NCBI GenBank assembly: GCA_028713575.1 | Contig: JAQTOB010000008.1 | Span: forward strand, 1-30,658 | DNA from: Patescibacteria group bacterium | GTDB taxonomy: Bacteria; Patescibacteriota; Patescibacteriia; UBA2591; UBA6264 | Length of the DNA: 30,658 nucleotides | Direction: 5' to 3' | Part shown: positions 6,914-30,658 of the stretch, in pieces | How positions within the stretch are numbered: position 1 is the first letter of the stretch | Layout: each line of letters begins with the position of its first letter | Translations under genes and position numbers: made by a program | The notes under the pieces: model-generated | Database searches by the model: none | Told to the model about the DNA's origin: nothing | The model's input: only the letters and a program-made list of their open reading frames with translations

Positions 6914-7744
6914 TTATTTTTTAGCAATAATAACCAAATTATCTCCTCGTTGAAAAATAAAGGATAAAAAAGAAATTATTAATTTTATCAACCCCGCAAC
7001 ACTAAAACTTAAACGGTGATACATATTATGGCGAGTATCAACAAGCAGAGTTGTAAAATGATGATTTTCCAATAATTTTTTTAATGAAGTAGGGTCAAAT
7101 TGCCAATAATGCTGTTTAAAAGCAAAACCGTACCAATTCCGCCCCAATAATTTTCGCCAAAAACTGTTAAAGTTCGGCAGTTCAACCAGGATAATGCCAT
7201 CTTTTTTTAAAATGAAATATACTTTTTCTAAAACAGAATTTAAATTACTGATATGTTCAAGGCAATGAATCAGGGTAACGACATCAAAAGAAACTTCGGG
7301 GAAATTAATGGTTGTTAAATCTCCTGTCTTTAAACATTCATTTAAATGGAAGATTTTTTTGCCTCGTTCAATGGCCTTATGACAAGGGTCTATCCCGTGG
7401 GCATCAAAGCCGAAACGCCCCGCCTCTTTGACGAAAATACCCAAATTACAACCCACATCTAGCAGACGACCCGACTGTTTGTGTTTCTTAAGTCTCAACA
7501 AGGTGGCTCTGGCAAATGATGTCCTTAAGGCGAGCTGGTCTTCTCTTTTTAAATAATCATCTTGTTTTTGGTAAAAGTCCGGCTCTTGTTTTAGGGGAAC
7601 AGGCCAAGTGCGAAAGAGGTCGCATTGTCTGCACTTAAGAATTTGATAAGATTCTTCGCCTTTTTTAAAATCTAAAACCAAGTCGTAATCTTTTGCGCCG
7701 CAAACACAGGTAGGAAAATTTTTAGAAAGAAGGATTGATGACAT
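6914..7744 (-). CDS. Class I SAM-dependent methyltransferase with an N-terminal Cys4 element
   Basis: LLDVGCNLGIF (motif I), VVTLIHCLEHI and GIILVELPN, preceded by CVCG...CRQC. Confidence 0.8.
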   Translation of the reverse strand: MSSILLSKNFPTCVCGAKDYDLVLDFKKGEESYQILKCRQCDLFRTWPVPLKQEPDFYQKQDDYLKREDQLALRTSFARATLLRLKKHKQSGRLLDVGCNLGIFVKEAGRFGFDAHGIDPCHKAIERGKKIFHLNECLKTGDLTTINFPEVSFDVVTLIHCLEHISNLNSVLEKVYFILKKDGIILVELPNFNSFWRKLLGRNWYGFAFKQHYWQFDPTSLKKLLENHHFTTLLVDTRHNMYHRLSFSVAGLIKLIISFLSFIFQRGDNLVIIAKK

Positions 7745-8461: not shown

Positions 8462-8470
8462 ATTTTGCCC

Positions 8471-8547
8471 TGAGACCTAACCTTATTTTTTAACCCTCTA
8501 AAATGCTTTACTGATGCTGATTTTAGAGTGATTTTTCCAATTTGGTG
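8471..8547 (-). repeat. Family B element, degenerate copy (minus orientation)
   Basis: 8484-8545 is almost identical to 8675-8735, but the terminal hairpin is degraded to TGAGACCTAACC. Confidence 0.75.
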
Positions 8548-8596
8548 TAATTTCATTTGAAATTTAAATATAATTGTCGTTTCTTGCCTGGGGTCG

Positions 8597-8674
8597 GGGG
8601 TCTGACCCTATTTTTTTGGGTCGGGGTCTGGGGTCTGACCCTATTTTTTTGGGTCAGGGTCTGGGGTCTGACCC
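8597..8674. repeat. 3 x 33-bp tandem of the family B terminal hairpin (GGGGTCTGACCC + TATTTTTTTGGGTC...)
   Basis: Hairpins at 8598-8608, 8630-8641 and 8663-8674. Confidence 0.85.
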
Positions 8675-8745
8675 TATTTTTTAACCCTCTAAAATGCTTT
8701 ACTGATGCTGATTTTAGAGTGATTTTTCCAATTTGACGCGATTTT
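8663..8745 (-). repeat. Family B element (minus orientation) abutting the 3' end of the RAYT gene
   Basis: The reverse complement aligns with the plus-orientation copies: AAAATCGCGTCAAATTGGAAAAATCACTCTAAAAT...ATTTTAGAGGGTTAAAAAATAGGGTCAGACCCC. Confidence 0.8.
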
Positions 8746-8747
8746 AC

Positions 8748-9377
8748 TTAAATATATTTTTCGTTTTTTATAAATTTCGGTCTTTCTTCTTTTTTTGATT
8801 CTTCTTTTACAAATTCTAAATATTCTTGACGGAGTTTTTCAACACTTCCGTCTCCGCCTAATGATAAAAATTGTTCACCGTCTATCAAACTATCTTTAAA
8901 ATTCCCTTTAAAATAAAATTGATAACTGCTCCAGCGGTAATTCTCCGGATTTTTTGCTAAACCAGCGCGAACCGCATTGAGGTCAATATAGGCGCTAACC
9001 GTCCAAAAATAAGATTCAGTATCTATTAAAGAGGCATAAAATCTGTCTTGAAATAAATGGCCGGTCCGCTTATGTCTATAATTAAAATAACCCGCATAAC
9101 AACCATTGACATAATGCATAATCTTAGAAATGGGGACGTCTTTTGTTTCTATAAATAAATGGACGTGATTTGACAAAAAATTATAAGAATACAAATAAAA
9201 ATTGTACAATTTTTTTGCCTTTTTAATAATTGCCAGCAATTTTTTGTAATCGCGAGCTCCCCTAAAAATACGCTTCTGATTTATTCCCCGACAAACAATG
9301 TGGTATATTTTTTCAGGGGCAATAATTCTTTCTCTTAATTTTCTGGTCATTTTAAATAAAATTTTAAAATTAATCAA
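8748..9377 (-). CDS. REP-associated tyrosine transposase (RAYT, IS200-like Y1 transposase), apparently intact
   Basis: IYHIVCRGINQKRIF, HUH motif SNHVHLFIE, GHLFQDRFY, and a catalytic-Tyr region YIDLNAVRAGL. The first 9 codons of the ORF-track call lie inside a repeat copy, so the start is more likely the Met at 9350 (MTRKL...). Confidence 0.85.
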   Translation of the reverse strand: MINFKILFKMTRKLRERIIAPEKIYHIVCRGINQKRIFRGARDYKKLLAIIKKAKKLYNFYLYSYNFLSNHVHLFIETKDVPISKIMHYVNGCYAGYFNYRHKRTGHLFQDRFYASLIDTESYFWTVSAYIDLNAVRAGLAKNPENYRWSSYQFYFKGNFKDSLIDGEQFLSLGGDGSVEKLRQEYLEFVKEESKKEERPKFIKNEKYI

Positions 9378-9578
9378 AATCGTGCCAAATTGAAATTTTT
9401 GCTCTATAAGTCTTTATTGGTGCGTGTTTCAGAAGGGACGTTCATGGGGTCAGACCCCATCCTTCAAATGTTAAATAAAATTTTAAAATTAATCAAAATC
9501 GTGCCAAATTGAAATTTTTGCTCTATAAGTCTTTATTGGTGCGTGTTTCAGAAGGGACGTTCATGGGGTCAGACCCCA
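9352..9578 (+). repeat. Two tandem family B elements (period 119 bp)
   Basis: 9352-9459 and 9471-9578 are near identical, with terminal hairpins at 9446-9458 and 9565-9577. They are followed by three CCCCATTATATTT mini-repeats (9574-9619). Confidence 0.9.
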
Positions 9579-9594
9579 TTATATTTAGACCCCA

Positions 9595-10482
9595 TTATAT
9601 TTCAGGCCCCATTATATTTCTCCAGAATTGGGCTTTTTCTTGGTCGCCTTTTTCCTGGTAAAGAAGAGAAAGAGCTAATGACCAAGCAGGGTCTTTGGGT
9701 CTTAAAATATAGCCGTGAAAATTCTTTTCAATCGCCTTATCAAGGTCGCCTTGCAAATAATAAAGGTCACCGATTTTTTTCCAAATTTCCGGACGGGCTA
9801 AAGGAAAAAATTTTAAAGCCTGTAAATACATTGTCTCGGCTTTGGCATAATTTTCTAAATTAGCATAAATTTCTCCCAAGTAAACATAAACTTCAGCCAT
9901 TTCCGCTGTCACTAGTTGATAATGTTCTTGATTCATTTGCGGATGGTCTAATGACGGATATAGATAAAACGCTTTTCTACACATTTCTTTGGCTCGCTCC
10001 CACTCTTTTTGATAAATTCTTAATTGGCACCAATCCGCATAAACCCGGGCCATTCGCGGTGCCATAACAGCGGCTTTGGCAAAAATTTCTTCCGTTTGTA
10101 AAAAATCATTTTCATTTTGAGTCAAACGCGATTTTTGCGACCAAAGACGAGCCAAATAAATCATTATGGTGTAATCTTTTTCCTTAATTTTTTCCATTTG
10201 ATTGATGGCTAAATCTAAAATTTTAATTTTTGTTTCGTCATTTTTATAAAACTGCAAGCCCCACTCCAAATCAAGAGCAAATTTTTGGTGATAAAACGGC
10301 TCCTGAGACTGGAAGAAAAAAACTTTTTGGTAATTAGCTAAAACTTCAGGCCAGTCTTCAGTCAAAAGGGTGCGGTTATAATAATAATCGGCTAAAAGCA
10401 TTTTAAAATCAAATAAAAAAAGAAACAAAAACAAAAAAGCAAGCAACAAAATTGTTAAAAAAATTTTTATTGATAAACGCAT
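9595..10482 (-). CDS. TPR-repeat protein with an N-terminal membrane anchor
   Basis: N-terminal LTILLLAFLFLFLFLF, and repeated Ala/Tyr/Leu TPR-like helices (YLGEIYANLENYAKAETMYLQALKFFP, GDLYYLQGDLDKAIEKNFHGYILRP). Confidence 0.7.
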   Translation of the reverse strand: MRLSIKIFLTILLLAFLFLFLFLFDFKMLLADYYYNRTLLTEDWPEVLANYQKVFFFQSQEPFYHQKFALDLEWGLQFYKNDETKIKILDLAINQMEKIKEKDYTIMIYLARLWSQKSRLTQNENDFLQTEEIFAKAAVMAPRMARVYADWCQLRIYQKEWERAKEMCRKAFYLYPSLDHPQMNQEHYQLVTAEMAEVYVYLGEIYANLENYAKAETMYLQALKFFPLARPEIWKKIGDLYYLQGDLDKAIEKNFHGYILRPKDPAWSLALSLLYQEKGDQEKAQFWRNIMGPEI

Positions 10483-10721: not shown

Positions 10722-12209
10722 TCATTTGACATTGATTTGACATTTAGCATTTGGGCTTTGGTATTGTTTGTCCCGCGGAGCGGGATCCCGCATAGCATAG
10801 ATAATTTGTGATTTGGGATTTATTATTTTTAAAACAATCGCCAGATATCCCCAAAAATAAATAGCCGTAGCGATGATATGAAAGGAAAACTGTAAAGAAA
10901 ACAAATAACCGAGCAATCCTGTCAACAAAACCAAAACAAGTGTTTGAGTTTTTAAACAATCAGGTGTTTGGGGGTTTTTAAAAATAAATTTTAATCCCAA
11001 CCAAAAAACATTAAAAAACAAAAATAAATAAGCTAATAAACCAAAAATCCCGGCATTTAAAAGCATATCTAAAAAATCATTGTGCGCCCGGTCCGGCACT
11101 TGGTTTATCCCTTCCAAAGCGGCGCAATCTGGCTGATAGTAACGAGGAGAATTTAAATTTAATGTTTCTAGTCCATACCCCAACCAGGGTCTTTGCTTGA
11201 TTAAATCAAAACTGTTTTTCCACCAAAAAAATCTTAACTGGCCAGTAGATAATAAATTGCTAAATGTTTTTAATCTGACTGATAAAAAGTTTTCGTTTTC
11301 TTTGACCGACAAAGGATGTAAATTCAAAATTATTAAAAAAATTATTGAGAGAACAAAAAAGGAAAGAAAAACGACTGATAACTTCTTTTTCTTTTTAAGC
11401 CAAGAAAAGGCAATGATGAAAAAGAAAAACATTAAAACAAAGGCCAGCCAAGCGCTTCTGCTTTGCGTAAAAACTAAAATTAACAAAGTTAAAATAGATA
11501 GACTAACAAATGCCGGTCGAAAAAATATTTGTTTTAAAGATTGGGGCTTTTTGGCTTGAAGAATTATAAGAAAAATAATTGGCAAAACCAACAAAAGCCA
11601 AGAAGCAAAAAAATTCGGCTGGCCGAAAGTGGAAAAAACGCGGTAGCCGAGGGAGGGAGATTCCGACCAGCGAAAAAAATCCAAACCCAATATCTGTAAA
11701 AATCCGTAAATGACCGCTACGGCGGCCGTGATGATAATTGTATGAAAAATGCGTTGGATTTGCTTTTTACTTTTTAAATTAAAAAATAAAATTAAAAAGA
11801 AAATAAAAAAATGGAGCCACATCAAATAGCCCATTTTTCGGGCGTAATAGCCCCAAAAACTGTAATAAAACGATTGGGAAAAAATCGTCGCCAAGCCGAG
11901 AATAAAAATAAAAACAAGGGCGGGAAGAACATATTTCAGGCACTTAGTCCGCCAGTTGGCAGATTGAATACTTGGTCCGCCAGTTGGCGAATTGGGTGCT
12001 AAAATAGTCTTAACTAGCCAGAAAAAAAAGATTATTTTCACCAGGGTCTGAAACAAAAAACTGCCGGAAATCTGCCAGGTGCCGTAGACGACCGGAACAA
12101 AAAATAACGGGGTCAGAAAAAAAATCATCAGCCAGCCGACTTCTATCAACAAATCAATCAATTTTAAAATCTTCTCCTTCATATTAAGAATAATAACAAA
12201 AATTCGCAA
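10722..12209 (-). CDS. O-antigen ligase-like (Wzy_C domain) polytopic membrane protein
   Basis: More than 10 hydrophobic segments, FTQSRSAWLAFVLMF, and a periplasmic-loop RAHNDFLDMLLNAGIFGLLAYLF motif typical of the WaaL/PglL/TfpO family. Confidence 0.8.
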   Translation of the reverse strand: MRIFVIILNMKEKILKLIDLLIEVGWLMIFFLTPLFFVPVVYGTWQISGSFLFQTLVKIIFFFWLVKTILAPNSPTGGPSIQSANWRTKCLKYVLPALVFIFILGLATIFSQSFYYSFWGYYARKMGYLMWLHFFIFFLILFFNLKSKKQIQRIFHTIIITAAVAVIYGFLQILGLDFFRWSESPSLGYRVFSTFGQPNFFASWLLLVLPIIFLIILQAKKPQSLKQIFFRPAFVSLSILTLLILVFTQSRSAWLAFVLMFFFFIIAFSWLKKKKKLSVVFLSFFVLSIIFLIILNLHPLSVKENENFLSVRLKTFSNLLSTGQLRFFWWKNSFDLIKQRPWLGYGLETLNLNSPRYYQPDCAALEGINQVPDRAHNDFLDMLLNAGIFGLLAYLFLFFNVFWLGLKFIFKNPQTPDCLKTQTLVLVLLTGLLGYLFSLQFSFHIIATAIYFWGYLAIVLKIINPKSQIIYAMRDPAPRDKQYQSPNAKCQINVK

Positions 12210-12340: not shown

Positions 12341-12436
12341 TAAAAATCGGTCAAAATCACGCCAAATTGAAATTTTTGCTCTATAACCCTTTGTTGATAG
12401 GAATTTTAGAAGGGATGTTTAGGGGGTCAGACCCCA
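12341..12436 (+). repeat. Family B element
   Basis: AAAATCACGCCAAATTGAAATTTTTGCTCTATAA...TTTTAGAAGGGATGTTTAGGGGGTCAGACCCC, with the hairpin at 12423-12435. Confidence 0.85.
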
Positions 12437-12446
12437 GTAAAATATG

Positions 12447-12471
12447 AAAAATCCGCTTAATGCGGATTTTT
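12447..12471 (-). terminator. Intrinsic terminator downstream of the major pilin gene (bidirectional hairpin)
   Basis: AAAAATCCGC-TTAAT-GCGGATTTTT is a 10-bp stem flanked by A/T runs on both strands, 60 nt after the pilin stop codon. Confidence 0.75.
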
Positions 12472-12530
12472 CCTCTTTAAATAATTTAAAATATTTTAAA
12501 TTTTTTGTTCTATAACTTATTCTAATCTTA

Positions 12531-13022
12531 TTACCAAGTGGTGTCGTCGACCAGACCGGCCGGCGTGGCGGTGTGTTTACCGGCCGCCACATCACCGATT
12601 ACTCCGCCTAAACAATAGTGAATCTGATAAGTAAGATTTGGGGCACTAGTTGACAGCGTTACATATGTATAAACCGTGTTGGGACAATCACCGTCTGCTC
12701 TCGGTTGGGGATTTTCCGGCACCACGGCCATATAAGTTGTTCCTGAACAGGCATCAGTGGCAAAGCCGTCATCTGAGTCCAAGCACACTCCACCAATGGT
12801 ATTGTCTCCCGCCACTTTAATATCCGGATATTCGTTGTTATCCAAATAATACAATTCCAAAGCGGTTTGAATTTGTTTAATGTCCGCGACCCGGCGGGCG
12901 TCTCTAGCTCTGGCTCTGGCTTGATTAAGGGCGACCACGGCTAAAGCGGAGAGTAAACCCATAATCGCCACCACAACTAAAAGTTCAATTAAAGTAAAGC
13001 CTTTTTTCTTTTTTGTATTCAT
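12531..13022 (-). CDS. Type IV major pilin / GspG-like pseudopilin
   Basis: MNTKKKKG-FTLIELLVVVAIMGLLSALAVVALNQARARARDARRVADIKQIQTALELYY is a textbook class III signal peptide plus N-terminal helix. The C-terminal domain is noticeably more GC-rich than its surroundings. Confidence 0.9.
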   Translation of the reverse strand: MNTKKKKGFTLIELLVVVAIMGLLSALAVVALNQARARARDARRVADIKQIQTALELYYLDNNEYPDIKVAGDNTIGGVCLDSDDGFATDACSGTTYMAVVPENPQPRADGDCPNTVYTYVTLSTSAPNLTYQIHYCLGGVIGDVAAGKHTATPAGLVDDTTW

Positions 13023-13197: not shown

Positions 13198-14631
13198 ATG
13201 ATAAAAAAACAAATCAATTTAATGGCTGAAGGCGAATTACCGAGAGTGGTAGTTAAGCAAAAAAATGTGTCTAATTTGAAAAAAAAACATTGGGTCTTTA
13301 GACTCTTGGTTTTTATTTTAGTAATAATTGCTTTATTCTCAACTAATGTTATTTTTTCTAAAAATAGCTTAATCACCAATTTAGGTCGCTTGTCTTTTTG
13401 GGAAGGAGTGACTCGTTTGATGATTGGCAAGGATAAAATTTTAAAAGGCGAGATATTTGACCGCATCAATATTTTAATTTTAGGCATGGGTGGCGCGGCC
13501 CATGAAGGTCCTTATTTAACAGACACTATTATTTTAGCCAGCCTTAAGCCCTCCGCTCATCAAGTCGGACTTTTATCAATCCCGCGCGATCTTTATGTGC
13601 CCATTCCCAATTATGGCTGGCGGAAAATAAACTCGGCTAATGCTTTGGGCGTAGCGGCATCAAAAGACGGCGGGCTGTTAACCAGTCAAGTGGTCAGCAA
13701 TATTTTTGACACTTCTGTCCATTATTGGATTAGAGTTGATTTTAAACTCTTTAAAGACATTATTAATGAATTAGGGGGCATTGAAGTAGAAGTGGAAAAA
13801 TCATTTGTTGATTATCAATTTCCTGACGCAAATTTTTCTTATAGAACAATAAGCTTTGAAAAGGGCTGGCAAACTATGGACGGAGAAACGGCCCTTCAAT
13901 TCGCCCGCTCCCGGCACGGAACCAATGGCGAAAATTCTGACTTTGCTCGAGCCAAAAGACAACAAAAAATTATTTTTGCCATTAAAAAAAAATTAACTGA
14001 AGAAAATGTTTTATCTCAGCCAAGAAAAATTTTAAGCATTTATAACAGTTTGCAAAATAATTTCAGCAGCAATCTTGATTTCAGCCAAGCTATCCGCTTG
14101 GTTAAAATCGTACTGGAAGTAAATTTTGAAAACATTATTACCAAAATTATTGAAGCTGAGCCGAACGGACCATTAATTTCAGAAATCAATTCCAATGGCG
14201 CGTTTGTTTTAAAAACCAAAACCGGCGATTTTAAAGAATTGGCCGATTTGGCAAAAAATCTTTTAGAGCCGACCATTGAAGCCCCTCTTTTTGGACAAAG
14301 GGCCGCCGGTTTAACCGAAGAACCAGTTGCTTTGATAAAACAAAAATCCAAATTGATTATTTTAAACGGCACTTATATTCCCGGTTTGGCTCAAGAGGCA
14401 AAAGAAAAATTATCCTTATCTGAATTTGAAATAGTCCAGGTTGGTAACGCATCAACAAGGAATTATAAAAAAAACATCGTATATCCGATTAAAGAAAATT
14501 TTGACCAAGAACATTTGACAAATCTTTGCCAAATAATCAATGGCGAAACAGAACAATTATTAGATAAAGATTTAAAAAATATATTTGACCAACGAGCCGA
14601 TTTTTTAATTATTTTAGGAGATAATTACTAA
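13198..14631 (+). CDS. LytR-CpsA-Psr (LCP) family protein with a C-terminal LytR_C-like extension
   Basis: N-terminal TM segment, INILILGMGG...LTDTIILASL...LLSIPRDLYV...ALQFARSRHG...DFARAKRQQKII. Confidence 0.85.
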   Translation: MIKKQINLMAEGELPRVVVKQKNVSNLKKKHWVFRLLVFILVIIALFSTNVIFSKNSLITNLGRLSFWEGVTRLMIGKDKILKGEIFDRINILILGMGGAAHEGPYLTDTIILASLKPSAHQVGLLSIPRDLYVPIPNYGWRKINSANALGVAASKDGGLLTSQVVSNIFDTSVHYWIRVDFKLFKDIINELGGIEVEVEKSFVDYQFPDANFSYRTISFEKGWQTMDGETALQFARSRHGTNGENSDFARAKRQQKIIFAIKKKLTEENVLSQPRKILSIYNSLQNNFSSNLDFSQAIRLVKIVLEVNFENIITKIIEAEPNGPLISEINSNGAFVLKTKTGDFKELADLAKNLLEPTIEAPLFGQRAAGLTEEPVALIKQKSKLIILNGTYIPGLAQEAKEKLSLSEFEIVQVGNASTRNYKKNIVYPIKENFDQEHLTNLCQIINGETEQLLDKDLKNIFDQRADFLIILGDNY

Positions 14632-14644
14632 AAAATTAAAAAAC

Positions 14645-16030
14645 ATGGAAACGCAGAATCACAAAAACGAAAAAAAAGCAAAATATCTTTTCAAAGGGGC
14701 TGACCTCGCCGAAAATCAGACCCCCAAAATCGCCCTTATTGGACAAGTAAACACGGGCAAATCAACTTTGTTTAATCGCTTAATTTCTGAATCAAAAGCG
14801 ATTATCTCTTCTGTTCCCGGAACAACGCGCGACCGCCAATACGGCATTTGTTCCTGGCGAAGTTATAATTTTACAATCATTGACACCGGCGGGGTTGAAG
14901 AAAATAAACCAAAAAATGAATTAGAAAAAGCAATTAAAAAACAAATTAAAGAAGCTTTGAAAGAAGCGAATTTTATTTTTTTCTTAATAGAGGCCCGACT
15001 GCCCGAAGACGACTTTGGCCCAGCTTTTTCCGGTTTTGAAAGAGAAATCAGCCGATTAATAAAAAAAACAAAAAAACCTTGTTTTTTAATTTTAAACAAA
15101 GCGGATAATTTGCAAAAAATGAAATGGGCTTTAAGTCTGACTTGGCAAAAACTTGGATTAGGAAAAGCCTACCCCATTTCCGCCACCACTGGTTCCGGCG
15201 TAGGCGACCTTTTAGATGAATTGTTAAAAATGCCCTGGGAATTTAAAAAATCGGATTCTCAATTCTTGGAAAAAACAATTAAAGTGGCGATTATCGGTCG
15301 GCCCAATGTGGGAAAGTCAACTTTATTAAACGCTCTCTTGGGAAAAGAAAAGGCCATTGTTTCCAACCAACCGCACACCACGCGCGGACCGCAAGATACT
15401 TTGGTTTATTATAAAAAAAAACCTTTTCTTTTAATTGATACTGCCGGCATCAGACAAAAAAGAAAAATCAGTGATTTTTTGGAAAAAATCGGAGTGCAAA
15501 AATCTTTAAAAATGATTCAAAAATCCGATGTTGTTTTAATGGTTATTGATGTTACGCAAACGATTGGCCATCAAGACAAGGCCTTGCTTGACTTAATTAT
15601 AAAAAGCAGAAAAGCCCTGATTATAATCCTAAACAAGTGCGATTTGGAAAAAGCCTATCAACCGAGAATCAATTTAGCCAACTGGGCGCCGTGCCTTTTA
15701 ATTTCTGCAAAAAATAAGAAAAACGTAGAAGAAATTTTCCCCCTGATAGAACAGGTGAAAAAAAATCATTTTTCAATTTTCAGTGAAGATGAATTGTCTA
15801 ATTTTTTAAAACAAACGATAATAAAATTCAATTGGAATGAAAAAATCTGGCAGAGAATTGAATTAAAACAGGCCGGCACTCAACCGCCAAAATTTATTCT
15901 CAAAATACCAAGAGTATTCGCTCGAAGAAAGCTCGTACCCCAGGCACAAATAAATATTTTGAAAAAAGAATTAAGAAAAAATTGGGCCCTGGAGGGAACG
16001 CCCATAGATATCAAAACATTAAAACAATAA
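14645..16030 (+). CDS. der: Ribosome-associated GTPase Der (EngA)
   Basis: Two tandem G domains (GQVNTGKSTLFNRL...DTGG...NKAD and GRPNVGKSTLLNAL...DTAG...NKCD) plus a C-terminal KH-like domain. Confidence 0.93.
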   Translation: METQNHKNEKKAKYLFKGADLAENQTPKIALIGQVNTGKSTLFNRLISESKAIISSVPGTTRDRQYGICSWRSYNFTIIDTGGVEENKPKNELEKAIKKQIKEALKEANFIFFLIEARLPEDDFGPAFSGFEREISRLIKKTKKPCFLILNKADNLQKMKWALSLTWQKLGLGKAYPISATTGSGVGDLLDELLKMPWEFKKSDSQFLEKTIKVAIIGRPNVGKSTLLNALLGKEKAIVSNQPHTTRGPQDTLVYYKKKPFLLIDTAGIRQKRKISDFLEKIGVQKSLKMIQKSDVVLMVIDVTQTIGHQDKALLDLIIKSRKALIIILNKCDLEKAYQPRINLANWAPCLLISAKNKKNVEEIFPLIEQVKKNHFSIFSEDELSNFLKQTIIKFNWNEKIWQRIELKQAGTQPPKFILKIPRVFARRKLVPQAQINILKKELRKNWALEGTPIDIKTLKQ

Positions 16031-16636: not shown

Positions 16637-16880
16637 CAGTAAATCCCAATCCTCGCAAAAATTGATCAAAATCACACCAAATTTGAATTTTCGTTCTGTA
16701 AGTCTTTATTGGTGCGGATTTCAGAAGGGGTGTTCATGGGGTCAGACCCCAGACTCCAAGACCAGTAAATCCCAATCCTCGCAAAAATTGATCAAAATCA
16801 CGCCAAATTTGAATTTTCGTTCTGTAAGTCTTTATTAGTGCGGATTTCAGAAGGGGTGTTCATGGGGTCAGACCCCAGAC
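16637..16880 (+). repeat. Two tandem family B elements (period about 125 bp)
   Basis: 16637-16754 and 16762-16880, each starting CAGTAAATCCCAATCCTCGCAAAAATTGATCAAAATCAC... Hairpins at 16738-16750 and 16864-16876. Confidence 0.9.
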
Positions 16881-21115: not shown

Positions 21116-21240
21116 AAAAATATAAAGTATAAATCTTAAAATGCCTGTTTAAAATGCTAAATTTCAAATGTCAAAAGATAAACAACAAATAACAAATTCC
21201 AAATAACAAACAAATTATCTGCTCCGCCAAAGGCTAAATA

Positions 21241-21427
21241 AAATCCTTCTACGAGGTCTCGCCTCGTAGGTCAAAATCCTTCTACGAGGTCTCGCCTCGT
21301 AGGTCAAAATCCTTCTACGAGGTCTCGCCTCGTAGGTCAAAATCCTTCTACGAGGTCTCGCCTCGTAGGTCAAAATCCTTCTACGAGGTCTCGCCTCGTA
21401 GGTTGAGGTCTCGTCTCGTACAACGCC
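21241..21427. repeat. 5 x 33-bp tandem array of family A palindromes plus a degenerate sixth unit
   Basis: CTACGAGGTCTCGCCTCGTAG at 21249, 21282, 21315, 21348 and 21381, each followed by the identical 12-nt GTCAAAATCCTT. The loop is in the opposite orientation to the copies at 445-570. Confidence 0.9.
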
Positions 21428-21443
21428 TCTTAAATTTTAAATT

Positions 21444-22549: not shown

Positions 22550-22912
22550 GGGCGCATAGCATAGCTCCCCATAAAATTTTACTTCGTAAAATTAACGGGG
22601 CAAGCAGTGGCAGACCTGCCTACTCTGCCTACCGGCAGACAGGCGGCAGGCAGGGCGCCACTTTTATAGTGATAATTTACAATCTATTTTGTCTTTGGTG
22701 AGCGTAATTCGGGCGTGTAGCTCAACGGCAGACCTGCCTGACGGCAGGCAGGGCGCCACTCTTATAGTGATAATTTACAATCCATTTTGTCTTTGGTGAG
22801 CGTAATTCGGGCGTGTAGCTCAACGGCAGACCTGCCTGACGGCAGGCAGGGCGCCACTCTTATAGTGATAATTTACAATTTAATTATTCTTTCTGGTGGG
22901 TGTAGTTAAAAT
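22550..22912 (+). repeat. Three tandem units derived from a tRNA-Ile 5' half, each interrupted by a GC-rich palindrome
   Basis: Units start at 22550 (diverged, 161 bp), 22711 (98 bp) and 22809. Units 2 and 3 begin with GGGCGTGTAGCTCA, identical to tRNA-Ile positions 1-14. Then comes CGGCAGACCTGCCTGACGGCAGGCAGG, then GCGCCACTCTTATAGTG, which mimics the anticodon arm GCGCTACTCTTATAAAGTAG. Confidence 0.8.
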
Positions 22913-22987
22913 GGGCGTGTAGCTCAGTGGTAGAGCGCTACTCTTATAAAGTAGATGTCGAAGGTCCGATCCCTTCCACGCCCACCA
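22913..22987 (+). tRNA. tRNA-Ile, anticodon UAU
   Basis: Manual cloverleaf: acceptor GGGCGTG/CACGCCC, D arm GCTC-AGTGGTA-GAGC, anticodon arm CTACT-CTTATAA-AGTAG (anticodon TAT), variable loop ATGTC, T arm GAAGG-TCCGATC-CCTTC, A73, and an encoded CCA. Confidence 0.8.
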
Positions 22988-24993: not shown

Positions 24994-26214
24994 ATGATAA
25001 CCAATGAACAAATTATCAACCAAATAAATAAGGCAATTTTTGAACAAAAAACATTGCTTTATGTTACTCGTCAAAAAGAAAGGGCTCAAGGGTTGGAAGA
25101 CGTGTTGACTCATTACAAAATCATTTCTCAGAATAAAGACTCGGCGGAAATCATTGAAAAAACAAAATTACCCAAGGGTTTAATTATTGTTTTTAAAAAC
25201 AATACAAAAATTCAAAGGATTTGCCAAGAAAAAAAACTCAAACTTCTCAATCCTGATTATTCTTTGAATGAAAAATATGAAAATAAAATCAGCCAATATC
25301 AATGGCTAAAAACGATTATTCCTCAAAACCTCCCGAAAACAATAATCACCTTGCCAATTAAAAGCTCTTTTCAAAATTTAAAAAAAGAAATAAACGCGCC
25401 GTTTATTTGCCAGTTTAATCGCAGTCATACGGGAGAAGGAACTTTTTTAATTTCCCGGCAAGCTCAATGGCAAAAAATGGCCAAAAAATTTCCTTTTCGC
25501 GAAGTAAAATGCGTAAAATTTATAAAAAGCCCGATTATTACGGTTAATGTCTGCTTGTGGCCCTCCTGCATCAAGAATTCGGCGGATAAGCAAGGCTGCG
25601 TTCTGGTCGGCAATCCTAGTTATCAAATAACCGGATTAAAAGAATTAACTGATTTTAAATTTTCTACTGTGGGCAATGATTGGTCCTGGACAAAGAAAAA
25701 CCTTTCTTCTAACGACTTAAAAGCAATAAAAAATCTAAGTGAAACAATCGGGCAAAATATGATTAAAGAAGGCTGGCGCGGATTATTTGGTCTTGATTTA
25801 GTTAAAGATAAAAAATGGCTAATCATTGAAATCAATGCCCGGCAACCGGCTTCTGCGGGATGGGAAACTTTGCTACAAAGAGACCAGGGAGAGGGAATCA
25901 CTGTCCTTGCCTCCCATTTCGCCGCTTTGTTAAATCTCCCCTTGCCCGCTTCTTGTTCAGAAATGCAAAAATCTTTGCAAAAAATCCAAAAAGGAAGCCG
26001 AATTATTATTAGAAGAAAAAACGCTCAAAATTACACCAAATTGAAAAAAATGCTCCAAAACCCTTTACCAAAGCCCGTTATAGAGGGGGCGTTTAGGGGG
26101 TCAGACCCCAAGATAAATGTGGAATTGTTTCAGATTCGGAGCCTTGAAAACGGTTTGGTAAAAAAAAATGGTCAATTGAATAAAACTGCAAAATTATGGA
26201 AAAAGAAGTTTTAA
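24994..26214 (+). CDS. ATP-grasp domain protein (unknown ligase)
   Basis: Central and C-terminal ATP-grasp signatures (FICQFNRSHTGEGTFLI...VKFI...GLFGLDLVKDKKWLIIEINARQPAS). The C-terminal ~65 codons include a family B repeat read in frame. Confidence 0.7.
   Translation: MITNEQIINQINKAIFEQKTLLYVTRQKERAQGLEDVLTHYKIISQNKDSAEIIEKTKLPKGLIIVFKNNTKIQRICQEKKLKLLNPDYSLNEKYENKISQYQWLKTIIPQNLPKTIITLPIKSSFQNLKKEINAPFICQFNRSHTGEGTFLISRQAQWQKMAKKFPFREVKCVKFIKSPIITVNVCLWPSCIKNSADKQGCVLVGNPSYQITGLKELTDFKFSTVGNDWSWTKKNLSSNDLKAIKNLSETIGQNMIKEGWRGLFGLDLVKDKKWLIIEINARQPASAGWETLLQRDQGEGITVLASHFAALLNLPLPASCSEMQKSLQKIQKGSRIIIRRKNAQNYTKLKKMLQNPLPKPVIEGAFRGSDPKINVELFQIRSLENGLVKKNGQLNKTAKLWKKKF
26026..26110 (+). repeat. 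Family B element lying inside the ATP-grasp ORF
   Basis: CAAAATTACACCAAATTGAAAAAAATGCTCCAAAA...TTATAGAGGGGGCGTTTAGGGGGTCAGACCCC, with the hairpin at 26097-26109. Translated as AQNYTKLKKMLQNPLPKPVIEGAFRGSDPK. Confidence 0.8.
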
Positions 26215-28074: not shown

Positions 28075-28258
28075 TATAAACGCAAGGGGCAAATCTTAAA
28101 ATGCAACCCGCCCGCACAGGCAGGAATGACAATATAAAATTAAAAATGGATTAAAAAAAATATTTTACATTTTGAACTGTCATTTTAATTTTTAAATTTT
28201 AACTTTATTTTTTTCAGGCATAAACTTCAAAAAATAAAATAAGATACTTCTTTATTTT

Positions 28259-28354
28259 AAAAATTGATCAAAATCACACCAAATTTAAATTTTCGTTCTA
28301 TAATCCTTTGTTAATGCGGGTTTTGGAGTGGATGTTTATGGGGTCAGACCCCAG
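28259..28354 (+). repeat. Family B element ending 9 nt upstream of the DUF1611 start codon
   Basis: AAAATTGATCAAAATCACACCAAATTTAAATTTTCGTTCTATAA...TTTTGGAGTGGATGTTTATGGGGTCAGACCCC, with the hairpin at 28340-28352. Confidence 0.85.
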
Positions 28355-28361
28355 ATAAAAA

Positions 28362-29501
28362 ATGCAAAATTCTATCAGGACAAGTAAATCTAATATTTTT
28401 ATAAACCTTTTTGACAAAAAAAGGCGGATTTTAATTTACGCAGAAAAATCATTCGGCCTGAAAACACGGGAAAAATTTCCCACTTTAGCCAAAACCGCGG
28501 ACGGCGTATTACGTTACGCTAAGTATAAAATAAGCGGAGTGGTTGATTCCATATGTGAAGAAAAAAACGTGACGGAAGTTTTAAAAACTAAAAAAAATAT
28601 TCCTGTTTTTAAAAATTTGAAACAAGCAAAAGAAAAAACCAAAGCCAATACTTTAATTTTAGGCATTGCGCCCAGTGGCGGTCAACTCCCTGAATATTTT
28701 TTAAACGATTTAACCTGGGCTTTAGAAAACGGTTTGGATATTGTAAGCGGATTACACACGCCAATTTGTTCTTTTCCAAGTCTGTTCAAATTAGTTGGAA
28801 AATACGAAAGAAAAATTTGGGAAACCCGTTTGTCTCCGAACAATCTACCCATTGCCGGATGTCGGGTTTATCAAAAAATAAAAAAACCTATCGTTTTAAT
28901 GGTAGGTATGGATTCGGCTATTGGTAAATTAACGGCTACTTATCAATTGGCTGATTTAGCTAAAAAAAACGGATTGCGGCCACAAATCATTCCCACTGGC
29001 CAAACCGGCGTAATGATTGAGGGCTGGGGAATAACTATTGATAAATGCGAAGGCGATTTTATGGCCGGAGCAGTAGAAAAAATGATTTTGGAAAAAGATA
29101 AAGAAAAAAACCCTGATTTTTATTTAGTGGAAGGTCAGGGGTCCTTGTTTCATCCGGCCTATTCCACCACTTCTTTGGCCTTAATTCACGGTGCCTGTCC
29201 TACGCATTTGGTTTTGGTTCACCGACCACAAAGAAAAAGGGTGACTAATTGTCCTTTGTTAGCTGTTCCAAAAATAAAAACCGCAATTAAAACCTATGAA
29301 AATATGACCATGCCTCCGTTCAGAAAGGTCAAGGTGGTCGCCATTGCTTTAAATACCCAAGGGATGAAAGAGCAAGAAGCAAAAAAAACGATTAAAGAAA
29401 TCAAAAAACAAACCGGATTGCCGACAACGGACTTAATTCGCTGGCCCCAGGATTGGACGAAGTTATTTTTGAAAAAATTAAACAAAATCGCGCCAAATTG
29501 A
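28362..29501 (+). CDS. DUF1611-family protein (DgcN-like; function unproven here)
   Basis: VGMDSAIGKLTAT...IPTGQTGVMIEGWG...DFMAGAVE...VEGQGSLFHPAYS...LIHGACPTHLVLVH matches my memory of the DUF1611 family. The last 7 codons and the TGA stop lie inside a family B copy. Confidence 0.7.
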   Translation: MQNSIRTSKSNIFINLFDKKRRILIYAEKSFGLKTREKFPTLAKTADGVLRYAKYKISGVVDSICEEKNVTEVLKTKKNIPVFKNLKQAKEKTKANTLILGIAPSGGQLPEYFLNDLTWALENGLDIVSGLHTPICSFPSLFKLVGKYERKIWETRLSPNNLPIAGCRVYQKIKKPIVLMVGMDSAIGKLTATYQLADLAKKNGLRPQIIPTGQTGVMIEGWGITIDKCEGDFMAGAVEKMILEKDKEKNPDFYLVEGQGSLFHPAYSTTSLALIHGACPTHLVLVHRPQRKRVTNCPLLAVPKIKTAIKTYENMTMPPFRKVKVVAIALNTQGMKEQEAKKTIKEIKKQTGLPTTDLIRWPQDWTKLFLKKLNKIAPN

Positions 29502-29844
29502 AAAAATCCTTCTAAAATCATTTATTGGTACGGATTTTAGAGGGCCTCTTAATGGGGTCAGACCCCAAAAAAATACAAGGATTGGACGAAGTTATTTTTG
29601 GAAAAATTAAACAAAATCGCGCCAAATTGAAAAAATCCTTCTAAAATCATTTATTGGTACGGATTTTAGAGGGCCTCTTAATGGGGTCAGACCCCAAAAA
29701 AATACATTCGCTGGCCCCAGGATTGGACGAAGTTATTTTTGAAAAAATTAAACAAAATCGCGCCAAATTGAAAAAATCCTTCTAAAATCATTTATTGGTA
29801 CGGATTTTAGAGGGCCTCTTAATGGGGTCAGACCCCAAAAAAAT
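29437..29844 (+). repeat. Three tandem copies of [3' end of DUF1611 gene + family B element]
   Basis: Units 29436-29577, 29578-29706 and 29706-29844, with hairpins at 29554-29566, 29683-29695 and 29824-29836. Units 1 and 3 repeat TTCGCTGGCCCCAGGATTGGACGAAGTTATTTTTGAAAAAATTAAAC, which is coding sequence in unit 1. Confidence 0.9.
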
Positions 29845-30658
29845 ATGAAAAGTGTACATTTTATTGGTATTTGCGGAGTGGGAATGGCCGGCGTGGCTGT
29901 GATGATGCAAAAAATGGGTTGGAAAGTAACCGGTTCGGATAAAGGATTTTTCCCGCCAATCAGCGACTTTTTAAAAAAAAATAAAATTGATTTTTATCCC
30001 GGCTGGCATCCGGAAAAAATTAGTAATCCTGACATTATAGTGGTCGGTAATTTTATTTCTTTAAACAACCCCGAATATTTATTCGTCAAGAAAAAGAAAT
30101 TGGTCATAAAATCTTATCCAGAGTTGGTGAGAGAATATATTGTTAAAAAAAAGTCCGTGGTTGTGGCCGGCACTTTTGGTAAAACCACGATTGCCGCTTT
30201 TGTCGCTCATCTTTTTAAAATCGCCGGCCTAAATCCCAGCTGGTTTATCGGCGGATTGGCAAAAAATTTTTCCTGTGGCGCCGCAAATAATCAGGACAAT
30301 TGGAGTGTAGCTGAAGGAGATGAATACACTACGGCGCGCTGGGACTCGCGGTCAAAATTTCTTTTATACAAACCGACTCATTTAATCCTTACATCTATTC
30401 TTTGGGACCATCTTGATGTGTTCCCCCGGGAAAAAGATTATGACCGGGCTTTTAAAAAACTTATTAAAATCATTCCTTCTCAAGGCGTAATCATCGCCGC
30501 CAAAAGAAATGACACGCAGAAAATTGATAAAATAATTTCTCAAAGTAGGGCAAAAATAATCCGCTACGGACCCTATGAAGTCAAGTCCTATAAAACTGAT
30601 TACAGTTATGAAATAACATCTTTAAATGAAAACGGCTCCGAATTCGTCGTTTATCATT
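29845..30658 (+). CDS. mpl: UDP-N-acetylmuramate:L-alanyl-gamma-D-glutamyl-meso-diaminopimelate ligase (Mpl-like Mur ligase), partial; continues past the window end
   Basis: My own translation: MKSVHFIGICGVGMAGVAVMMQKMGWKVTGSDKGFFPPISDFL...VAGTFGKTTIAAF...AEGDEYTTARWDSRSKFLLYKP. GICG, FPPxS and EGDEY...D.RSKF are Mpl-like rather than MurC-like. There is no stop codon in the window, so it is absent from the ORF track. Confidence 0.8.
   Translation, partial: MKSVHFIGICGVGMAGVAVMMQKMGWKVTGSDKGFFPPISDFLKKNKIDFYPGWHPEKISNPDIIVVGNFISLNNPEYLFVKKKKLVIKSYPELVREYIVKKKSVVVAGTFGKTTIAAFVAHLFKIAGLNPSWFIGGLAKNFSCGAANNQDNWSVAEGDEYTTARWDSRSKFLLYKPTHLILTSILWDHLDVFPREKDYDRAFKKLIKIIPSQGVIIAAKRNDTQKIDKIISQSRAKIIRYGPYEVKSYKTDYSYEITSLNENGSEFVVYH

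Follow-up and report, generated by a model that had tools for sequence, protein, structure and literature searches.

A complete contig of 30,658 nt from a metagenome-assembled genome (MAG) of the Patescibacteria, hereafter called the window, carries an intact RAYT-like gene between inverted copies of a structured repeat of ~96 nt. The question raised by this locus is what kind of system the gene and its repeats form. RAYT-type domesticated transposases and the repeat populations that accompany them are best known from Proteobacteria. We conclude that the window probably holds a RAYT system of the TIRtron type, in which a single, vertically inherited enzyme gene lies between inverted cognate elements, and the further elements of this genome, as seen in the window, occur as solo copies, as local tandem arrays and once in frame within a gene. 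TIRtrons are a known but little studied kind of system. A literature search found no description of a TIRYT/TIRtron system in Patescibacteria, and the present example appears to be undescribed. The copy counts given below for this genome cover the window alone.

The gene occupies positions 8748..9350 on the minus strand and encodes a predicted Y1 HUH tyrosine nuclease/transposase of the RAYT-like (TIRYT) type with 200 amino acids. That this open reading frame (ORF) is an intact RAYT gene had been proposed in a preliminary description of the window, and the protein comparisons bear out an intact RAYT-like Y1 HUH gene. A Pfam search with the whole protein matched Y1_Tnp and no other family (E 1e-16). 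A search of the PDB with the single protein sequence gave no match, and a profile built from its homologues matched one solved structure only, the Escherichia coli TnpA_REP (4ER8, chain 4er8_A; E 2.2e-7). The same chain was the best Foldseek match (TM 0.70, root-mean-square deviation 2.4) for an AlphaFold (AF2) model with a mean predicted local distance difference test score (pLDDT) of 87, followed by the ISDra2 and IS608 transposases; the model also has three short helices at 143-185. The ~340 relatives of the protein are nearly all ~200 amino acids long and belong to Patescibacteria where named. In an alignment of 32 of them, N61-H62-V-H64, which contains the HuH histidines, and N125 are invariant, as are W140 and S142, and the catalytic Tyr121 is conserved in at least 90%. 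The Y motif, Y121-I-D-L-N125, is of the class-2 type Y---N and not Y---Q. Of the gene coordinates first proposed, 8748-9377, the end was retained and the start was not. The gene most likely begins at the ATG at 9350 and not at the TTG at 9377, because all homologues begin with M-[PTSA]-R at that point.

A repeat search found 12 copies of the element in the window, 10 on the plus and 2 on the minus strand. The preliminary description had listed 12 copies and had proposed that an nhmmer or Infernal model built from them be used to count copies genome-wide; in the window, nhmmer and an Infernal model each retrieved the same 12. The plus-strand copies (repeat family D2) start at 9365, 9484, 12342, 16657, 16783, 26016, 28259, 29473, 29602 and 29743, and the two minus-strand copies, delimited by the repeat search (repeat family D11) as 8470-8561 and 8661-8752, span 8470-8565 and 8661-8756. 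Three modules were resolved by alignment: a conserved and apparently unpaired box, AAAATCRYGCCAAATTGAAA; an imperfect internal hairpin consisting of CTCTAWAA, a loop of 11-13 nt and then TTTTAGAG; and, at the outer end of the element, a near-invariant terminal hairpin, GGGGTCAGACCCC. When up to one mismatch was allowed, GGGGTCAGACCCC was found at 13 hairpin sites, 10 of them exact and on the plus strand and 3 on the minus strand (8597, 8630 and 8663) with one mismatch each, compared with 0 expected from 100 shuffles. These 13 sites account for 23 rows in the pattern table because the near-palindrome matches the opposite strand too.

Two of the copies flank the gene directly. The downstream flank copy (8661..8756, minus strand; 81 bits with Infernal) is of type B, with the loop GCATCAGTAAA; its box adjoins the stop codon and its hairpin is distal. 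The upstream flank copy (9365..9460, plus strand) is of type A, with the loop TTTATTGGTGC, and is followed by an identical tandem duplicate (9484..9579, plus strand), the pair forming 119-nt units over 9352-9579. A second type-B copy (8470..8565, minus strand; 63.9 bits) is decayed, and its terminal hairpin has degenerated to AAGGTTAGGTCTC. The geometry noted at the outset, with minus-strand copies only immediately to the left of the gene, the nearest plus-strand copies immediately to its right and the hairpins distal, was confirmed.

The class of the system was judged from the protein motifs and the flanks together. Quentin et al. 2018 tabulated the key motifs of each TnpA_Y1 subclass (PMC6006769). 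Those of subclass 2.1, which equals the RAYT Group 1 of Bertels and which those authors regard as the probable counterpart of the TIRYTs described by Di Nocera et al. 2013, are NHVH/NH[YF]H, W[EQ] or FQ, YIELNP/Y[IV]HLNP and SS in the tail (PMC6006769). The window protein has NHVH, HLFQDRF (LFQDRF), YIDLNA and RWSSY (WSSY), which fit the motifs of subclass 2.1, and at this motif level it would be placed in TnpA_Y1 class 2 as a subclass 2.1-like (TIRYT) protein. TIRYTs were described by Di Nocera, De Gregorio & Rocco 2013 as RAYT-like genes with long inverted-repeat flanks containing GGGGWSAS (PMC3733652). In the window, the flank hairpin GGGGTCAG fits GGGGWSAS and is present in every intact copy, and the 96-nt arms at 8661-8756 (minus) and 9365-9460 (plus) are long terminal inverted repeats unrelated to the GTAG repetitive extragenic palindromes (REPs). 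The alignment showed no GTAG or CGTC tag at the terminal hairpin, the bases 5' of which are variable A/T, and the window contains no inverted doublets, its copies being solos and direct tandems. The preliminary description had drawn a parallel to REP/REPIN-RAYT pairs, which these features do not favour. Because the protein motifs fit subclass 2.1 and the flanks carry GGGGWSAS, we place the locus with the TIRtrons; judged by sequence, the closest described class is TIRYT/TIRtron and not classical REP/REPIN.

The pairing of gene and element recurs in other genomes. Public genomes and metagenomes, when scanned with sequence patterns, yielded 29 loci (designated L below), to which homologue look-ups added more; the scan of a genome collection contributed two loci only, and the window genome was not among its species representatives. 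At least six other Patescibacteria lineages (L002/L005, L006/L023, L029, L030/31, L034/35 and L040; protein identity 58-82%) have the gene between two elements whose hairpins point away from it. An absence of association with this gene family across related genomes, considered in the preliminary description, was looked for and does not hold, because flank bracketing recurs with the gene family across genomes and hairpin variants agree in most of the lineages checked. The flanks and all dispersed copies in the window have the hairpin GGGTCWGACCC, and a different hairpin, GTGACWGTCAC, is shared by the L040 flanks and three dispersed sites. Of the four lineages that could be checked in this way, three (the window, the L030/L036 contig and L040) have dispersed copies with the flank hairpin of their own lineage. 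Furthermore, L012 and L019 contain head-to-head doublets without a RAYT gene and with a spacer of 46-59 nt, equivalent to the flanks of the gene minus the gene.

A different account of the same geometry is that the whole flank-gene-flank unit is an active, autonomous insertion sequence (IS) of the IS200/IS605 type and that the solo copies are remnants of past insertions. The unit at 8662-9459, measured from hairpin to hairpin, is 82% identical in DNA to that of L006/L023, whose neighbouring TPR protein is only 56% identical; on the gene-sense strand both internal loops run the same way, like the left-end and right-end hairpins of IS608-type elements; and the L040 gene lies in a different genomic context, a relocation at greater distance. 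However, there is one copy per contig, including the window, and five lineages (L002/L005/L023, L025, L030, L032 and L034; protein identity 58-82%) share with the window the neighbours of the gene, in the order pilin-like gene, Wzy_C ligase, TPR protein, the gene itself and sugar-modification genes (glycosyltransferases or methyltransferases). Neighbours shared across five lineages point to vertical inheritance at a fixed locus and not to an active IS. The Y motif is also of the class-2 kind, sequence and fold are nearer to TnpA_REP than to the IS608 or ISDra2 TnpA, no tnpB was found in the window or at the related loci, and each solo copy consists of one complete arm and not of a truncated gene. 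Because the gene is syntenic we reject the autonomous IS, which we consider very improbable, in favour of a TIRtron-type gene at a fixed locus.

Some of the related loci have peculiarities of their own. At L002 (1208-1794) and L005 (5684-6270) the RAYT homologue is distributed over three reading frames, its first part strongly diverged, and both flanks are intact; this frameshifted gene is probably a pseudogene and offers a natural gene-loss comparison. The L001 and L002 MAGs are labelled 'uncultured Gammaproteobacteria bacterium', but their local RAYT and TPR genes match the Patescibacteria clade, and the label or the binning looks doubtful. The L038 genome (GCA_000405165.1, ASNW01000003.1) has a second Y1_Tnp gene at 14140-14915, encoding 224 amino acids with ~35% identity to the window protein. 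This gene lies between the DUF1611 and Mur ligase genes, where the window has a triple tandem array, and its short inverted-repeat flanks, GGGACAGTCACCC and GGGTGACTGTCCC, fit GGGGWSAS.

The element is structured, to different degrees in its two hairpins. The terminal hairpin has 99% of its alignment cells paired and includes a compensatory T-A to A-T flip, and the internal helix has 61% of its cells paired. When the internal stem was tested as a named structure, its covariation was 0.205, compared with 0.135 after shuffling (0/500 shuffles reached 0.205) and 0.09-0.12 when the partners were slid, and several of its pairs alternate between U-A, C-G and G-C. RNAalifold applied to the MAFFT alignment returned the terminal hairpin only and did not find the internal stem. 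The mean folding z-score of 33 distinct copies was -0.95, most copies lying near 0 and about one third below -2.5. The preliminary description had read compensatory changes in this stem as selection on the fold. The pairs on which it relied (29512-19/29533-40, 8687-95/8711-19 and 28296-303/28321-28) are in the sequence exactly as it gave them, and the covariation exceeds both controls; selection was overstated, given 61% pairing and a mean z-score of -0.95. Its argument from G-U pairs for an RNA or strand-specific fold was not sustained, as the inner stem has 30 G.T and 43 A.C pairs and hence no G.T excess, and the G.T excess of the outer stem matches base composition. The internal stem is real, if kept only loosely, and none of these results favours RNA over DNA.

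The 11-nt loop of the internal hairpin is bimodal, being TTTATTGATGC-like in 24 distinct copies, the reverse complement of this in 16 and unclear in 1. In the window and at L030, L006/L023, L002 and L029, the upstream flank has the TTTATTGATGC-like loop and the downstream flank its reverse complement. Both loops are therefore alike on one DNA strand despite the inverted arms, because the loop form flips between the flanks, and all twelve window copies share the loop strand. L040 does not follow this rule. The flip is reminiscent of IS608-type elements, whose left-end and right-end hairpins are read on one strand, and it would make sense if the stem-loop here were read on one strand, which we suggest without confidence. 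An IHF site and a DnaA box were considered for the loop motif and dropped by eye, as the consensus positions do not fit.

Local duplication has added to the number of copies. The window has three tandem arrays with periods of 119, 126 and 129/141 nt: the upstream flank array described above; two type-A copies in 126-nt units (16657..16752 and 16783..16878, plus strand) after the peptidyl-tRNA hydrolase (Pth) gene, a site also filled in L030/L036; and three type-A copies in 129/141-nt units (29473-29568, 29602-29697 and 29743-29838, within 29437..29845, plus strand). The units also carry unique sequence from upstream (at the DUF1611 gene, its final 8-12 codons), and the arrays are therefore local segmental duplications and not independent insertions. 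The direct tandems that the preliminary description had emphasised are present, but they cannot be counted as independent insertions, as their units carry unique flank. Four array 3' junctions fall 9-12 nt after the terminal hairpin, whereas their 5' breakpoints are not constant, lying 13-36 nt ahead of the element. On a smaller scale, 9 of the 44 distinct copies, with several genomes represented, have the 3' arm of the hairpin and 8-12 nt of flank re-duplicated once or more immediately 3' of the hairpin; no such stutter was seen on the 5' side of the hairpin in any of the 44. In the window, hairpin and 3' flank form a 33-nt tandem (x2.8) at 8590..8682, beyond the downstream flank copy, and the hairpin 3' arm plus 8 nt of flank, TCAGACCCCATTATATT, form a 17-nt stutter (x3) at 9569..9620 (plus strand). 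Because the hairpin itself is palindromic, this one-sidedness follows the orientation of the element. The pattern suggests that DNA repeatedly breaks, or that the template is switched, ~10 nt 3' of the hairpin, and the footprints are compatible with hairpin-guided cleavage by a Y1 enzyme.

Footprints of this kind also bring up the possibility that host processes alone (hairpin slippage, unequal recombination or gene conversion) have spread the repeats, the position of the Y1 gene being accidental. The unique flanking sequence inside the tandem units agrees with this, as does the presence in the window of several other, unrelated palindromic tandem families, which mark the genome as prone to arrays. 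Slippage would, however, leave unexplained both the dispersed copies at new sites and the RAYT-less head-to-head doublets. The gene-plus-flank geometry in at least seven lineages, one of them non-syntenic, and the match between flank and dispersed hairpin variants in most of the lineages checked are further arguments against an accidental position, and we give this account hardly any credence compared with a TIRtron-type system.

Copies turn over between related genomes. The contig Ga0172371_10002487 (L030 + L036), whose RAYT is 77% identical, is collinear with the window and has copies at window-like sites, namely between the pilin and Wzy_C genes, behind the Pth gene and where the DUF1611 gene ends. 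The first of these corresponds to the solo type-A copy at 12342..12437 (plus strand) between the pilin-like and Wzy_C genes of the window, the orthologous L030 site being filled at 7434-7529. The solo type-A copy at 28259..28354 (plus strand), upstream of the DUF1611 gene, is missing from L036, where the site is empty and the GT4/DUF1611 intergenic region measures 12 nt. Conversely, L036 has a copy at 11203, after the ATP-grasp gene, where the window is empty and the genes overlap. Identity is 80-85% among copies in one genome vs 72-77% between positional orthologues, and the higher within-genome identity therefore indicates that copies are homogenised or replaced within genomes, as has been reported of REPINs.

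When the filled site (window positions 28075-28361) was compared with the empty one (L036 positions 13323-13336), neither the precise edge of an insertion nor a target duplication emerged, because the window has ~270 extra bases and the element accounts for only 96 of them. The stretch at 28075-28258, between the GT4 gene and the 28259 copy, is ~184 nt long, is AT-rich apart from a GC-rich island, CCCGCCCGCACAGGCAGG, and has no L036 counterpart. A miniature inverted-repeat transposable element was discarded as a description of the element, as the copies are single arms and this filled-versus-empty comparison gave no clean boundary or target-site duplication.

Some copies have become part of coding sequences. 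The type-A copy at 26016..26111 (plus strand) lies in frame within the ATP-grasp-like gene 24994-26214 and encodes approximately AQNYTKLKKMLQNPLPKPVIEGAFRGSDPK. Orthologues of this gene with 52-73% identity have codons derived from box and hairpin in the corresponding place; L038 and L039 have the other hairpin variant there, and the L036 insert is decayed. The box also provides the DUF1611 gene with its last codons and its TGA stop, in the window and in L036 alike.

Retention at such sites is what would be expected if the elements were host cis-acting modules (mRNA 3'-end stabilisers, terminators, promoters or protein-binding sites) selected at fixed intergenic positions, with the Y1 gene either a historical disseminator only or a gene that uses the element as its promoter. 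Orthologous sites are filled in genomes in which the RAYT is only 77% identical, the in-frame copy is kept in orthologues at 52-73% identity, and the internal stem covaries. In addition, the reverse complement of the box in the 9365 copy reads TTGGCA, 16 nt, TAAAAT, a -35/-10-like arrangement that matches the sigma-70 type at 10/12 positions just before the RAYT ATG; the next gene at L032 is preceded by the same flank type; and type-B copies present a hairpin plus T-run on the opposite strand. Other properties of the copies do not suit a host module. Their orientation to transcription is mixed (~5 loci sense, 2 antisense), they overlap coding ends and supply stop codons, they lack a T-run behind the hairpin when read in their own orientation, and they are polymorphic for presence and absence between relatives. 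The inner stem has no G.U excess and many copies fold no better than shuffles. At E values up to 1, an Rfam covariance scan of the window matched no copy in its body; a weak match to IS128 (27.8 bits vs a gathering threshold of 80; 12433-12606, minus strand) touches the last bases of the 12342 copy, and the other matches were two tRNAs and weak chance matches away from the copies. The agreement of flank and dispersed hairpin variants in three of four lineages also speaks against host modules. We consider host modules unlikely as the explanation of the elements, and a host cis-regulatory role at best an added layer on a TIRtron-type system.

In such a system, the substrate would be single-stranded DNA, available for example at the replication fork, on which the enzyme would recognise the terminal, GC-rich hairpin with its GGGGWSAS motif and, probably, the internal stem-loop. 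The enzyme would nick the DNA near the hairpin, on its 3' side, and then re-ligate it, and elements would occasionally be copied, converted or duplicated, the gene itself no longer moving. Enzyme binding to the element, a cleavage position 3' of the hairpin, the involvement of single-stranded DNA and the making of the duplications by the enzyme and not by replication slippage are what we infer. A more speculative idea, which we regard as doubtful, is that the arms hide an IS200/IS605-like single-strand logic and that the stutters and junctions 8-12 nt 3' of the hairpin mark the cleavage point. If this were true, the clade would give the first sequence-level read-out of TIRYT substrate recognition and cutting, and a domesticated nuclease would be continually converting and duplicating elements, coding-embedded ones included, in a reduced genome of the Candidate Phyla Radiation (CPR).

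Several points weigh against the TIRtron-type reading. The protein scores 61.7 bits with the NCBIfam model REP_Tyr_transpos (NF047646), below the curated cutoff of 80, and on this score is related to, but no equivalog of, the curated RAYT set. Its Y motif reads YIDLNA in place of Y---NP, a P to A change found in most members, and its subclass is assigned from motifs. The two dispersed copies in the L034/L038 genome have GGGACWGTCCC (GGGGACWGTCCCC) vs GGGTCWGACCC in the flanks of the 200-amino-acid gene, and the flanks at L032/L033 are direct, not inverted. Hairpin-induced replication slippage could give the stutters without an enzyme, and copies at orthologous sites in diverged genomes could reflect a selected host function. 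Catalysis by the window protein is a prediction. The window is one 30.7-kb contig of its genome, to which the number and orientation of elements given here apply.

Roughly 4-5% of this region is repeat, a load that the streamlined genome tolerates, and copies that supply stop codons or ~30 in-frame codons matter for gene calling and annotation in CPR metagenome bins. TIRYTs, or subclass 2.1, are to our knowledge the largest class 2 subclass and one without biochemistry. The compact, well-conserved Patescibacteria case is a good comparative data set for enzyme recognition and cut sites, its assets being a fixed locus, lineage-specific hairpins, RAYT-less doublets, pseudogenised relatives and clear footprints.

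The window contains further repeats. Unrelated to the element, a second palindromic family, CTACGAGG-N5-CCTCGTAG, occurs as short arrays at 147-590 and 21240-21437, including a perfect 33-nt tandem (x5) at 21240-21403. It ends with GTAG, like the GTAG-tagged REPs of Di Nocera et al. (PMC3733652), and has no adjoining Y1 gene in the window. At 2390-2494, a 15-nt unit, GACCTGCCAAGGCGA, is repeated seven times after a GGCAGGTCATGACCTGCC palindrome, within overlapping mechanical ORFs (2135-2689 plus and 2292-2489 minus). Beside tRNA-Ile(tat) (22913-22987), a 98-nt unit is repeated 2.4 times at 22644-22937. At the end of every unit, a CGGCAGACCTGCC palindrome is fused to ~16 nt from the start of the tRNA-Ile gene (GGGCGTGTAGCTCA), and the upstream region and the 5' part of the tRNA gene have therefore been tandemly duplicated. 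Directly after the 12342 copy, a perfect hairpin with T-runs, AAAAATCCGC-TTAA-GCGGATTTTT (12446-12472), is probably the terminator of the pilin-like gene 12531-13022. A 41-bit minus-strand Infernal match at 12421-12509 was considered as a degenerate inverted partner of that copy and rejected as spurious; it arises from this hairpin and is better explained as an ordinary terminator hairpin sharing the element's terminal hairpin.

Among known systems, the IS200/IS605 elements (IS608, ISDra2) share with the window locus the Y1 HUH fold and, on the gene's sense strand, the same polarity of both internal stem-loops. Right-end cleavage in IS608 takes place ~10 nt 3' of the hairpin, and the duplication junctions at about this distance recall that position. 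The window gene differs from them in having Y---N and not Y---Q, in being single copy at a fixed locus and in lacking tnpB, and its arms are inverted repeats that are dispersed as single arms.

The locus also resembles the REPtron and REP-REPIN-RAYT systems, such as the E. coli TnpA_REP (4ER8) and the Pseudomonas REPINs. There too, a single vertically inherited Y1 gene is bracketed by inverted cognate repeats and the repeat population persists in the lineage, its members more alike within a genome than between orthologous sites, and 4ER8 is the nearest solved protein by both sequence and structure. The window element, in contrast, has no GTAG/CGTC guide tag by the hairpin and measures 96 nt vs 20-40 nt, its copies are solos and direct tandems and not inverted doublets, and the protein lies under the NCBIfam RAYT equivalog threshold.

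From the TIRtrons described so far the window system is set apart by its host phylum, Patescibacteria, and by its protein, which has 200 amino acids vs a median of 238 and, in the model, a short three-helix tail. Proteins of subclass 2.1 have a C-terminal domain like a helix-turn-helix (similar to Bac_DnaA_C, HTH_23 or HTH_28), and the Pfam search with the whole window protein gave Y1_Tnp only. The arm here measures 96 nt, has three modules and closes on its outer side with a perfect 13-nt hairpin formed by GGGGWSAS; the internal loops of the two arms are flipped relative to each other; the clade keeps strict synteny; and one copy is embedded in frame in a gene. Quentin et al., moreover, found no REP-like repeats beside subclass 2.1 genes (PMC6006769). 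The window system and the TIRtrons share these features: a RAYT-like Y1 gene of low copy number, between long inverted repeats that stand at a roughly fixed distance and are not GTAG REPs; the protein motifs NHVH, FQ, YI-LN and SS; and a flank sequence that also makes up a moderately abundant family of singles, dimers and clusters.

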